Shown one piece after another: positions 39,058 through 40,656 of a stretch of 64,000 nucleotides of DNA; the stretch's first letter is position 1, and each line of letters starts with the position of its first letter. The notes beneath the pieces were generated by a model, which was not told where the DNA came from, did not search any database, and was given only the letters and a program-made list of their open reading frames with translations. The position numbers and the translations under genes were made by a program. The stretch comes from Candidatus Magasanikbacteria bacterium RIFOXYC2_FULL_42_28 (lineage in GTDB: Bacteria > Patescibacteriota > Patescibacteriia > Magasanikbacterales > GWA2-37-8): NCBI GenBank assembly GCA_001784435.1, contig MFQZ01000001.1, forward strand, positions 156,205 through 220,204, read 5' to 3'.

Positions 39058-40656
39058 GAAAGGAGGTGATCCATGCGCAGCTTCCGCTACACATGCCTTG
39101 TTACGACTTCACCCCAGTCATTGACCCTGCCTTAGTCCCTTGCGAGATTTTGGGCATTGCCAACTTCCATGGTGTGACGGGCGGTGAGTACAAGACCCGA
39201 GAACGTATTCAACGCGCCGTGGCTGATGCGCGTTTACTAGCGATTCCGACTTCATGAAGGCGAGTTGCAGCCTTCAATCTGAACTGGGGCCGATTTTAAG
39301 GGATTAGCTCCATCTCGCGATTTAGCAGCCCGTTGTATCGGCCATTGTATCATGTGTGTAGCCCTGGACGTAAGAGCCATGCTGATTTGACGTCGTCCAC
39401 TCCTTCCTCCCGGCTCCCTGTTCGCAAGCGAACAGAAACTCTAAAATCTAAGTTCTAAACTCTAAATGCCAATTGGCGATTTAGGATTTAGTGTTTCGGA
39501 TTTAGAATTTCTGCGCTTATGCGCAGAGAGCCGGGCGGTCTCGTGTGTACATTTAACACACGACGTGGGTTGCGCTCGTTTCCCAACTTAATGGAACACC
39601 TCACGGCACGAGCTGACGGCAACCATGCAGCACCTATCTAGCACCCTCGAAGGCGGCCAATGTTTCCATCGGCTTGCAGCTAGTAGTTGAGCCCAGGTAA
39701 GGTTCCCCGTTTACCATCGAATTAAACCACATGATCCACCGCTTGTGCGGGTCCCCGTCTATTCCTTTGAGTTTTAGTCTTGCGACCGTACTTCCCAGGC
39801 GGCGAACTTAACGCGTTAGCTTTTTTAAACGGCACTGGCAGGGTCGATACTGCCAATACCTAGTTCGCATCGTTGAGGGCGTGGACTACCAGGGTATCTA
39901 ATCCTGTTTGCTCCCCACGCTTTAGTCTCTCAGTGTCAGGAATGTTCCAGTAAGCTGCCTTCGCATTTGGTGTTCTTGCCGATATCAACGCTTATTACGA
40001 CTACACCGGCAATTCCGCTTACCTCTCCCATCCTCTAGTTTGGTAGTTTTAAGAGCTGGCTCGATGTTAAGCATCGAGATTTAACCCCTAACCCGCCAAA
40101 CCACCTACAGACGCTTTACGCCCAATAAATCCGGATAACGCTTGAGGTCTCTGTATTACCGCTGCTGCTGGCACAGAGTTAGCAACCTCTTATTCTCAGG
40201 GTACCGTCAATAATTCGTCCCCTGCAAAAGCAGTTTACGACCCGAAGGCCTTCATCCTGCACGCGGCGTCGCTCCATCAGGGTTTCCCCCATTGTGGAAT
40301 ATTCTTGACTGCAGCCACCCGTAGGTGTCTGGGCAGTATCTCAGTCCCAGTGAGGCAGACCGCGCTCTCACGCCTGCTACCCGTCGTTGCCTTGGTGGGC
40401 TTTTACCCCGCCAACTAGCTGATAGGCCATAGGCCCCTCTTGAAGCGCCTTGCGGCTTTAAATGCGAATGACTTGCGTCCCCGCATTGCCATCAGGTATT
40501 AATCCGCCTTTCGGCGAGCTATCCCTGTCTTCAAGGTAGGTTACCAATGTGTTACTCACCCGTTTGCCGCTCGTAATTCCCTTGCGGGAACACGTCGCTC
40601 GACTTGCATGCCTTAAACACGCCGCCAGCGTTCATCCTGAGCCAGGATCAAACTCT
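39058..40656 (-). rRNA. rrs: 16S ribosomal RNA with insertion in V7/helix-40 region
   Basis: 5' end agagtttgatcctggctcag (rc of 40637-40656), 3' end ggatcacctcctttc (rc of 39058-39072); 515 region reads GTGCCAGCAGCAGCGGTAATAC. Confidence 0.9.
39437..39512. repeat. family C palindromic element inserted inside the 16S rRNA gene
   Basis: aactctaaaatctaagttctaaactctaaatgccaattggcgatttaggatttagtgtttcggatttagaattt lies between the conserved GCAACGAGCGCAACCC and GGAGGAAGG blocks. Confidence 0.6.

Follow-up and report, generated by a model that had tools for sequence, protein, structure and literature searches.

The window, by which we mean the whole 64-kb stretch of DNA that was analyzed, comes from an uncultured groundwater bacterium, Candidatus Magasanikbacteria, and contains a complete 16S rRNA gene with an insertion in helix 40 (h40; E. 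coli 1161-1175) (Table 1). One rRNA copy per genome is usual in CPR bacteria (PMC9297842), and for this reason the insert-bearing gene is probably the working one. Between ACCGCCCGGC and CCGGGAGGAAGG, where the RF00177 model has 4 nt, the gene has 116 nt, in agreement with the original prediction of a palindrome inserted in the h40 region. The distance between the flanking blocks GCAACGAGCGCAACCC and GGAGGAAGG was measured at 156 nt, which corrects an earlier estimate of about 165 nt. The net gain over relatives was 113 nt, the corresponding segment being 141 nt in the window and 28 nt in the relatives.

Table 1. The 16S rRNA gene, the parts of its h40 insertion and the related intergenic elements, in positions of the window
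Feature	Position	Strand	Evidence or remark
Intergenic family-C copy, between radical-SAM and NUDIX genes	9830-9957		nhmmer E = 1e-23; BLAST
Intergenic TGTCAT...ATGACA double-hairpin element	10999-11066		alignment A2; 91-94% identity to h40 cargo
16S rRNA gene, complete, 1605 nt, insert-bearing	39059-40663	minus	Rfam RF00177, 1419.6 bits, model positions 1-1533
Extended h40 closing stem, 3' strand GAGCCGGG	39409-39416	minus	MFE fold
116-nt insertion, replaces the h40 apical loop (E. coli 1166-1170)	39414-39529	minus	local Rfam alignment
GC hairpin B, CTGTTCGCTTGCGAACAG (CUGUUCG-CUUG-CGAACAG)	39418-39435	minus	read from sequence and fold
Central family-C heptad palindrome, imperfect, 74 nt	39436-39509	minus	four CTAAAnn-type heptads per arm, centre GCCAATTGGC
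GC hairpin A, TCTGCGCATAAGCGCAGA (UCUGCGC-AUAA-GCGCAGA)	39510-39527	minus	complementary to hairpin B too
Extended h40 closing stem, 5' strand CCCGGCTC	39528-39535	minus	pairs with 39409-39416 in MFE fold
Intergenic family-C copy, between convergent ClpP and VanW-like genes	53178-53300		inverted repeat I1; nhmmer E = 1.4e-19

The insert is laid out as a closing stem, a GC hairpin, a CTAAA-heptad palindrome and a second GC hairpin. The flanking new helix that had been proposed is borne out by the MFE fold, in which the two strands of the closing stem pair, and compensatory A-T to G-C and T-A to C-G changes (in either direction) are found in this stem across ten expanded relatives. Both of the proposed GC hairpins are present as well; since each can also pair with the other, the MFE prediction is a single rod rather than a set of separate hairpins. 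The palindrome between them was likewise recovered, as an imperfect one of 74 nt instead of the 75 nt first given. A hairpin resembling hairpin A (GCGCAUUAAGCGC) was observed at the same position in another species (L033). The MFE fold, a single long rod that extends h40, had an energy of -69.8 kcal/mol (z = -8.79), none of 200 shuffles was as stable, and its contiguous helices are predicted at about 12 bp and about 19 bp; an alternative fold with a four-way junction was only about 4.6 kcal/mol worse. Every h40 variant that we folded was predicted to form a rod with the basal h40 pairs kept. No ORF of at least 60 aa was found in the insert. We rejected the reading of the insert as a known RNA, since at E <= 1 the insert alone matched no Rfam family, intron families included, and produced only sub-threshold long-hairpin (miRNA-like) noise.

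The 16S palindrome had been assigned to the same family as the two intergenic copies, here called family C, and this assignment held. Clusters of at least four CTAAA/TTTAG pentamers in a 7-nt register occur at only three places in the 64-kb window (9836-9957, 39441-39505 and 53184-53294). An nhmmer profile made from nine metagenome copies, none of them from the window, recovered both intergenic copies (at 9830-9956 and 53178-53298) and then the 16S element as the third-best locus (E 1e-7). Other heptad palindromes followed by a small margin (E ~1e-6) and, because the heptad families are of low complexity and overlap, the CTAAA cargo is less securely homologous than the TGTCAT cargo described below. 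The intergenic copy at 9830-9957 gave full-length BLAST matches of 71-77% to the metagenome copies. The RNA-sense arm of the 16S element, CTAAATCCGAAACACTAAATCCTAAA, matched the arms of two outside copies (L054 and L088) at 25 of 26 positions, free spacer positions included, and the termini GAAACT-CTAAA...TTTAG-AATTTC are common to the 16S element and the L088 copy. The 16S element has about four CTAAAnn heptads per arm facing TTTAG arms and ends in AAACTCTAAA and TTTAGAATTT, as the family does; the inner CAAATyCyAA...TTTGATATTG segment of the full-length copies is missing and the centre GCCAATTGGC stands in its place. The 16S element is a short variant of family C. We found family C on at least seven further contigs, including three copies on the 7-kb contig L086. 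In a scan of the metagenome for CTAAA heptads, most of the matches listed (at least 120) were due to chance or to tandem arrays of a telomere-like CCCTAAA unit, about 11 were palindromes, and among these listed matches no family-C palindrome lay in a 16S gene of another species.

Empty sites, for which a check had been proposed, were found among relatives. The syntenic relatives L002 and L003, with 16S genes 92.6% and 90.6% identical to that of the window, have a plain h40 and no insert. In 24 of 34 other Magasanikbacteria 16S loci (GTDB), h40 is plain and has a loop of the GNRA type (CCyr-CGCAAG-yrGG); the remaining ten belong to one subclade, and their h40 is extended, with different palindromes at the same site. 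The heptad motifs in h40 vary by species (CTAAAnn, AATTTTC, AAGTTAT, AAATCAT and CGGAAAT), and two loci (L024 and L032) carry a 57-nt 'bare' extended stem. The 16S gene of L032 is 95.4% identical over 1214 columns to that of L012, which carries TGTCATCC cargo, and 98.3% identical over 357 columns to that of L027, which carries AAATCAT heptads. In a 16S tree of 309 columns, two taxa with a plain h40 (L023 and L028) fall within the insert-bearing group. The same-species assemblies are identical, and no recent polymorphism of filled and empty sites was seen. Among relatives whose h40 could be read, the nearest stands at 92.6% 16S identity, and the age of the insertion is bracketed only as under this value, because the contigs of the sister species (L161-L164) and L001 stop before the rRNA region. 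Insertions of about 0.9-1 kb were observed elsewhere in the 16S genes of L009, L034 and L022. No heptad arrays like their own h40 cargo were detected in the 8-kb loci of L009, L014, L027 and L033, in which flanking DNA is scant. The insertion comes at the cost of the conserved GNRA-type loop of h40, a loss that would be surprising if the loop makes an essential tertiary contact. The pattern of one site with different cargo could in part reflect replacement of one palindrome by another, through recombination or template switching, rather than transposition.

A second family, the TGTCAT...ATGACA double-hairpin elements (TGTCATCCTGAA...), is of high complexity, and was found in h40 of three species (L012, L035 and L037), in V1 of L002 and in intergenic DNA of the window, where there are at least five such elements. 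The 54-nt TGTCATCCTGAA cargo in h40 of the three species is 91-94% identical to the intergenic site of the window and 88-92% identical to the V1 insert of L002. Between the h40 copies the identity is 93-96%, compared to 87-91% for the host 16S cores and, measured by these identities, the cargo is conserved better than its host genes. A survey of V1 by sequence anchors does not amount to a census because the anchors matched only eight loci. The claim that a mobile palindrome had entered an rRNA variable region gains indirect support from the different cargoes at h40 and from this second family in three settings.

Palindromic elements of these kinds occur in the window at roughly one per 4 kb. 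Some elements are nested at the centres of other palindromes (L142, L068 and L086, the last with three copies), and orthologous intergenic spacers in the sister species show element turnover; the spacer orthologous to the 9830-9957 copy contains a TGTCAT-type element instead in that species (L161:9292-9375). The same repeat classes are present in frame in TrmD, where the variable surface loops are the receiving sites. The elements resemble MITEs in their dispersed copies with terminal inverted repeats (AAACTCTAAA/TTTAGAATTT in one family, TGTCAT/ATGACA in the other) and differ from them in the absence of a target-site duplication, as no direct repeat flanked 12 TGTCAT or 7 family-C copies. Screening of 16 window proteins with Pfam identified no transposase and tied no RAYT or nuclease to the elements. 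A reading as RAYT-mobilised REP/BIME sequences was rejected; those are GC-rich palindromes that measure 20-40 bp and carry a conserved tag, GTAG or CGTC (PMC3733652), whereas the elements described here are 54-130 nt long and mostly AT-rich, with AAACTCTAAA or TGTCAT at their ends.

We consider it probable, at roughly 70%, that the insert is a non-coding palindromic repeat, similar to MITEs or to the Rickettsia palindromic elements (RPE), that inserts into the apices of hairpins and that the tip of a peripheral rRNA helix can tolerate. The insert would then be a copy of a dispersed repeat, with a family-C CTAAA-heptad rod flanked by two GC hairpins. At least two element classes, the AT-rich heptad palindromes and the TGTCAT...ATGACA double hairpins, were seen repeatedly where a hairpin or palindrome already existed, at its apex or centre, and we infer a transposition-like spread with an insertion preference for hairpin apices. 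An element arriving at an rRNA helix tip would lengthen a coaxially stacked helix and would not disrupt the fold; h40 is probably such a hot spot in one subclade of the Magasanikbacteria, and helix 6 (V1) a second one in another species. In the precursor 16S rRNA, the rod is predicted to have a length of about 55 bp and to lie on the head of the 30S subunit. The rod may be retained as a lineage-specific expansion segment, or it may be excised by RNase III without religation, as in a classical IVS, which would give a two-piece 16S rRNA; the contiguous helices in the modelled rod could suit RNase III.

The rRNA IVSs that RNase III excises are described for 23S helices 25 and 45 of Salmonella and Coxiella, and for the 16S rRNA of Helicobacter, Campylobacter and endosymbionts of the Rickettsiales (PMC4990558 and PMC3335488, as cited in PMC11270868). 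Like these, the insert turns the apical loop of a peripheral helix into a long stable stem and is sporadic in close relatives. IVSs are held to be selfish or horizontally spread. The insert differs from them in having no ORF, and we know of no report of 16S helix 40 as an IVS site. An IVS that moves by horizontal transfer or gene conversion between rRNA genes only, is removed by RNase III and has an origin apart from the intergenic repeats would fit this anatomy and distribution, and IVS-type insertions in CPR bacteria are suggested in PMC11270868. However, the cargo of the insert belongs to families that are mostly intergenic and also occur in TrmD; the existence of intergenic copies argues against an rRNA-only origin, which we regard as unlikely. 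Such an IVS and the dispersed repeat that we favor are compatible on the fate of the RNA and differ on origin only.

We also evaluated the possibility that the insert is an expansion segment that grew in place in one subclade, h40 being lengthened by slippage of heptads and by template switches that perfect palindromes. DNA would then not have moved between loci, and the likeness of the insert to intergenic repeats would be convergence under the same mutational bias. The failure to find a target-site duplication or a transposase agrees with this proposal, as do the species-specific heptad motifs that blur into one another, the bare extended stem of L024 and L032, and the compensatory changes in the closing stem, which are those of a constrained RNA helix. 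The proposal does not account for the TGTCATCCTGAA cargo, since convergence cannot yield a complex 54-nt sequence that is shared, at the identities given above, by h40, intergenic and V1 sites and outdoes the surrounding 16S gene in conservation. For the TGTCAT cargo, growth in place is largely refuted by these sequence comparisons. For family C, the full-length alignment of copies from unrelated contigs and the 25 of 26 matches of the 16S arm to outside copies also speak against it, and we hold growth in place to be improbable as an explanation of the insert.

If the insert were what is left of a self-splicing intron (group I or II, in degenerate form) or of a homing-endonuclease element, it would be in keeping with most of the long insertions in CPR rRNA; 16S genes of CPR bacteria often contain introns (PMC11270868), and three of the loci surveyed here have 16S insertions of about 0.9-1 kb at other positions. 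The insert is just 116 nt long, contains no ORF, matched no Rfam intron model, folds as a simple rod and lies in a hairpin loop and not in conserved core sequence; the intron reading is already refuted at the level of sequence and structure, and its likelihood is very small. An assembly artefact, a chimera or a 16S pseudogene copy is hardly credible even though rRNA genes and palindromes are both prone to misassembly and the contig of a relative (L001) breaks directly before the rRNA region, since two independent assemblies of the same species (L165 from ENA and L166 from JGI) have a 141-nt h40 segment identical to that of the window, four independent assemblies of the species (L160, L165, L166 and L167) have the insertion unchanged and are 99.99-100% identical to the window, ten other species have an expanded h40, and the gene has a full-length Rfam score.

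The dispersed repeat that we favor has parallels in other systems. The RPE are palindromes of about 100-150 nt that occur in intergenic DNA and inside functional genes (Ogata et al. 2000, as summarised in PMC3184786). According to that summary they occupy gene positions whose product tolerates an extra hairpin or peptide, and the in-frame TrmD copies described here are a direct parallel; unlike the RPE, which are from another phylum and bear no sequence relationship to our elements, the latter have a 16S rRNA gene as a host and are nested. Double-hairpin elements are known from the mitochondria of chytrid fungi. Other mitochondrial examples are the repetitive hairpin-forming elements of sponges and the small inverted repeats of placozoans (PMC7813641, citing PMC2800124), and the GC clusters of yeast (PMC4478555). 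The mitochondrial elements are similarly short and mobile, lie in intergenic DNA, protein genes and rRNA variable regions, and turn over fast between close relatives; they differ in being organellar and of unrelated sequence, and the heptad-periodic AT-rich class and the h40 hot spot set the present elements apart. In heterocystous cyanobacteria, STRR heptanucleotide repeats reportedly lie within the gene for RNase P RNA, another case in which an intergenic 7-nt repeat family lengthens a peripheral helix of a structural RNA gene, although with tandem repeats instead of nested palindromes, in RNase P RNA instead of rRNA, and in cyanobacteria.

A further comparison is with the short insertions in CPR rRNA. 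Tsurumaki et al. 2024 (PMC11270868) give the positions of ten frequent insertion sites in figures and leave short non-intron insertions that lack ORFs uncharacterised, with some suggested to be IVS-like. The insert belongs to just this class by its length of less than 200 bp, its lack of an ORF or an intron model, and its location in a 16S gene of a CPR bacterium, where it tops a stem-loop. PMC11270868 mentions neither palindromes nor dispersed repeats, whereas the insert is tied to genome-wide families. Our results suggest that at least some of these short insertions are copies of genome-wide palindromic repeats. A broader proposal, which we advance tentatively and consider possible but doubtful, is that the Magasanikbacteria harbor undescribed, nested, non-coding palindromic elements that integrate specifically at the apices of DNA hairpins, through a hairpin-recognising enzyme or template switching during replication, and that are still active in building rRNA helices onto old ones; such elements would explain the unexplained short insertions in CPR rRNA.

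V7 and V1 inserts of 30-140 nt alter amplicon length and may break assemblies, alignments and chimera filters in these lineages. For the biology of the Magasanikbacteria, the finding means that rRNA helices are lengthened by inserted DNA, and it reveals a recurrent pattern in one small genome, in which the same element classes are found in intergenic spacers, TrmD surface loops and the tips of rRNA helices (h40 and h6). Because different cargo occupies the same site in close relatives, these genomes serve as a natural experiment that can tell where the ribosome accepts additional helices. If the rod is retained in the mature 16S rRNA, it would be a bacterial expansion segment with a nameable DNA source, and if integration at hairpin apices is the correct reading, the Magasanikbacteria would provide a present-day, sequence-traceable case of the route, insertion of helices into helices, by which expansion segments are held to have originated.

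One complete bacterial 16S rRNA gene (RF00177, 1419.6 bits, model positions 1-1533) runs along the minus strand of the window at 39059-40663. In a local Rfam alignment, 116 nt flanked by ACCGCCCGGC and CCGGGAGGAAGG replaced the 4-nt loop of the model, bearing out the original prediction of an insertion in helix 40 (h40), and alignment to E. coli rrsH placed the site in the apical loop (h40, 1161-1175; loop, 1166-1170). The predicted layout, a closing stem and two GC hairpins around a palindrome, was also correct when re-read in the RNA sense. Because hairpins A and B are mutually complementary, the predicted MFE fold is a single rod stacked on h40 (energy -69.8 kcal/mol, z = -8.79, with none of the shuffles equally stable); a four-way-junction fold was predicted to be ~4.6 kcal/mol worse. 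An ORF scan of the insert found no ORF of 60 aa or more, and there were zero matches to Rfam families at a cut-off of E <= 1.

Coordinates of the features in the window and in loci of relatives (L handles)
Feature	Location	Strand	Details
h40 closing stem	39528-39535 / 39409-39416	minus	CCCGGCUC/GAGCCGGG, RNA sense
Hairpin A	39510-39527	minus	UCUGCGC-AUAA-GCGCAGA, RNA sense
Imperfect palindrome, 74 nt	39436-39509	minus	four CUAAAnn-type heptads per arm, centre GCCAAUUGGC
Hairpin B	39418-39435	minus	CUGUUCG-CUUG-CGAACAG, RNA sense
nhmmer hit, intergenic family C	9830-9956		E 1e-23
nhmmer hit, intergenic family C	53178-53298		E 1.4e-19
nhmmer hit, 16S element	39436-39510		E 1e-7
nhmmer hit, best TTTCCAAT-type palindrome	51829-51919		E 1.3e-6
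TGTCAT double-hairpin elements	8090-8164, 10999-11066, 12388-12484, 15838-15917, 61720-61799		68-97 nt, each half a hairpin
AT-rich heptad palindromes	2529-2646, 3549-3658, 14040-14077, 16506-16604, 42407-42513, 51827-51940		ATTTCCA/TGGAAAT, TGTCAAA units
TrmD repeat segments	41805-41850, 42095-42134; L003:2184-2272; L002:4107-4193		in frame
h40 cargo, bare 57-nt stem	L024, L032, L015
h40 cargo, double hairpin	L012, L035, L037		TGTCATCCTGAA...
h40 cargo, heptad palindromes	L009, L014, L027, L033		four other motifs

The window was matched at 99.99-100% by four independent same-species assemblies (two from ENA, one from JGI and one from Logan), and both of those that extend to the 16S gene (L165 and L166) carried the same 141-nt h40 segment, which rules out an assembly artefact as the source of the insertion. 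The gene is probably the working one, since CPR genomes generally have one rRNA copy (PMC9297842). Homologues of the proteins encoded near it (S16, KhpA, TrmD, LepB, HisRS, a T4SS-pilin-like protein and a 3903-aa giant protein) place the window in Candidatus Magasanikbacteria, a CPR lineage, and its SHMT protein is 100% identical to the one in a RIFOXYC2_FULL_42 genome. Downstream (38672-38836 onward) lie tRNA-Val(GAC) and tRNA-Ile(GAT), a pair differing from the usual Ile/Ala spacer pair, then lepB and hisS. There was no Rfam match to 23S or 5S anywhere within the 64-kb window; here, therefore, the rRNA genes are not linked. At 60813-60897 (minus strand), ARAGORN called a tRNA to which it gave no identity and whose anticodon loop is odd ('tg' at position 34). 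Rfam scored it as a tRNA of ~85 nt (47 bits); a class II tRNA or an unusual loop could explain this.

The syntenic relatives L002 and L003 (16S identity 92.6% and 90.6%) have an ordinary h40, CCUG-CGCAAG-CAGG. Using an h39 pattern specific to the lineage, we surveyed the GTDB species representatives and recovered 34 loci; h40 was plain in 24, with a 28-nt GAGAC...GGAGGAAGG segment and a GNRA-type loop, and expanded in the other 10, showing that the site is empty in most relatives. The expanded loci share an extended closing stem whose variants (CAGCUC/GAGCUG, CGGCUC/GAGCCG, CGGCCC/GGGCCG and CAGCCC/GGGCUG) differ only by compensatory changes. This shows that base pairing has been kept, and palindrome maintenance at the DNA level could be an alternative source of the signal. 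A tree of low resolution, built on 309 columns, grouped the expanded taxa in one subclade with two plain taxa nested in it. Pairwise comparison uncoupled the cargo (the sequence on the extended stem) from 16S similarity: L032, with a bare stem, was 95.4% identical to L012 (TGTCATCC) over 1214 columns and 98.3% identical to L027 (AAATCAT) over 357 columns. The cargo of L033 has the layout of the window (GC hairpin, heptad rod, GC hairpin) with AATTTTC-type heptads, and every variant was predicted to fold into a continuous rod with the basal h40 pairs intact.

Two different 16S loci, L015 (CAWJAS010000002) and L024 (CAWJAS010000001), came from one MAG, MFD04716.bin.1.126, both with a bare extended h40. 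The L015 gene has GGGGGGAAGGGG in place of the conserved GGAGGAAGG and loses 16S similarity past ~position 1350; this could mean a second copy, a degenerate one or a mixed bin. Insertions of ~0.9-1 kb elsewhere in the 16S genes of L009, L034 and L022 (window-16S positions ~1063, 770 and 1479) are presumably of the intron type typical of CPR; L009 carries its insertion in addition to the heptad palindrome in h40.

The original prediction also linked the 16S palindrome to the intergenic family C, and this kinship was upheld by several comparisons. Clustered CTAAA/TTTAG pentamers in a 7-nt register occurred at only three loci in the 64 kb, the two intergenic copies and the 16S element, which share the termini AAACyCTAAA / TTTAGAATTT. 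A metagenome heptad-pattern scan gave, among the matches listed, similarly built palindromes on other contigs, to which the window intergenic copies were 71-77% identical over full length; among those aligned were three copies on the 7-kb contig L086. The RNA-sense arm of the 16S element agreed with arms on L054 and L088 at 25 of 26 positions; of the 8 that the search pattern had left free or degenerate, 7 were among the matches. An nhmmer profile built solely from nine outside family-C copies recovered the 16S element with a slim lead over the other heptad palindromes of the window, and the inner segment of full-length copies is missing from it. The 16S element is thus a short family-C member inside a wider superfamily of heptad palindromes.

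The relatedness of h40 cargo to intergenic repeats in general is settled by the high-complexity TGTCAT...ATGACA family, with at least five elements in the window. The double-hairpin cargo of L012, L035 and L037 was 91-94% identical to intergenic window 10999-11066 and 88-92% identical to a 65-nt V1 (helix 6) insert in the 16S of L002. The three cargo copies were 93-96% identical to one another, compared to only 87-91% for their 16S cores, which suggests either that the cargo was acquired recently and independently or that the element itself is strongly constrained. The V1 insert (L002:6162-6226, in the 16S gene at L002:6066-7653, whose h40 is plain) is set in a ~110-nt expansion; L003 and L017 have smaller V1 extensions, and V1 looks like a second hot spot. 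The element at 15838-15917 lies within a predicted 153-aa ORF (15506-15967), suggesting a miscalled start codon or a further in-frame insertion.

Orthologous spacers also show turnover of the elements. The alignment with a sister species, whose SHMT is 97% identical in protein and 88% in DNA, breaks precisely at the two intergenic elements: instead of family C, its radical-SAM/NUDIX spacer has a TGTCAT-type double hairpin, and a long AAAATCA heptad palindrome occupies its NUDIX/SHMT spacer. In the window, the latter spacer contains a 194-aa ORF (10365-10949) without a Pfam match that adjoins a TGTCAT element and is missing from the sister species (L161-L164). A second, commoner heptad class (ATTTCCA/TGGAAAT and TGTCAAA) occupies many short spacers, and all classes together amount to about one palindromic element per 4 kb. 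Runs of 35-50 N in the spacers of relatives (L002:1261-1306, 3724-3767 and 3850-3905; L009:5737-5792) could be assembly gaps at such repeats. On contigs L142, L068 and L086, a family-C rod is central to another palindrome ending ...CTCGCAATGACA, the same Russian-doll layout as the window h40.

In TrmD (window ORF 41678-42424, minus strand), repeat-derived codons occur at two variable loops. At loop one, TTTCCAAT heptads contribute 17 residues in the window, the TTTCCAAT/TGTCAAA heptads encoding NDKFPISNVKSNPKSKF, and an AAGGAAC/TTACTCC palindrome contributes 27 in L003; L002 has no added residues. At the other loop, L002 carries an 87-nt, 29-codon TGTCAT...ATGACA element, and the window and L003 carry GAAAATT-type heptad codons.

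Vioque (1997, cited in PMC2858038) is said to have described STRR heptamers within cyanobacterial RNase P RNA, and the h40 insert is reminiscent of these. In anatomy it resembles rRNA IVSs, and in behaviour Rickettsia palindromic elements (PMC3184786), which the in-frame TrmD repeats resemble, and mitochondrial hairpin elements (PMC7813641, PMC4478555). The repeats depart from MITEs in their target sites, as no duplication was seen at the flanks of any copy examined; the repeats did not qualify as REP elements, nor the h40 insert as an intron. A 2024 survey (PMC11270868) left short, ORF-less, non-intron CPR rRNA insertions uncharacterised; it mentions no palindromes or repeats and gives insertion-site positions in figures only. 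The window insert belongs to this class. Targeted full-text searches on small-repeat or palindromic elements within rRNA genes or Patescibacteria revealed no published dispersed repeat family at bacterial 16S helix tips.

The h40 apex has gained a dispersed palindromic repeat at a site that most relatives have empty and some have filled with other repeat families, in indirect support of the proposal that the insert is a mobile palindrome. We infer that the repeats may spread by a copy mechanism favouring the apices of hairpins and palindromes, a preference that would explain why they sit at rRNA helix tips, nest in one another and replace each other at one site. A hairpin-recognising single-strand transposase is one candidate agent, replication template switching between palindromes another. 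Insertion at an rRNA helix tip would merely give a longer helix. The precursor 16S is then predicted to carry a ~55 bp rod, with roughly even chances that it would be kept as an expansion segment of the 30S head or removed by RNase III as in classical intervening sequences. The pattern extends across the lineage: h40 is the hot spot, V1 a further site and the TrmD loops the protein counterpart. The h40 insert can be traced and put directly to the test with RNA data.
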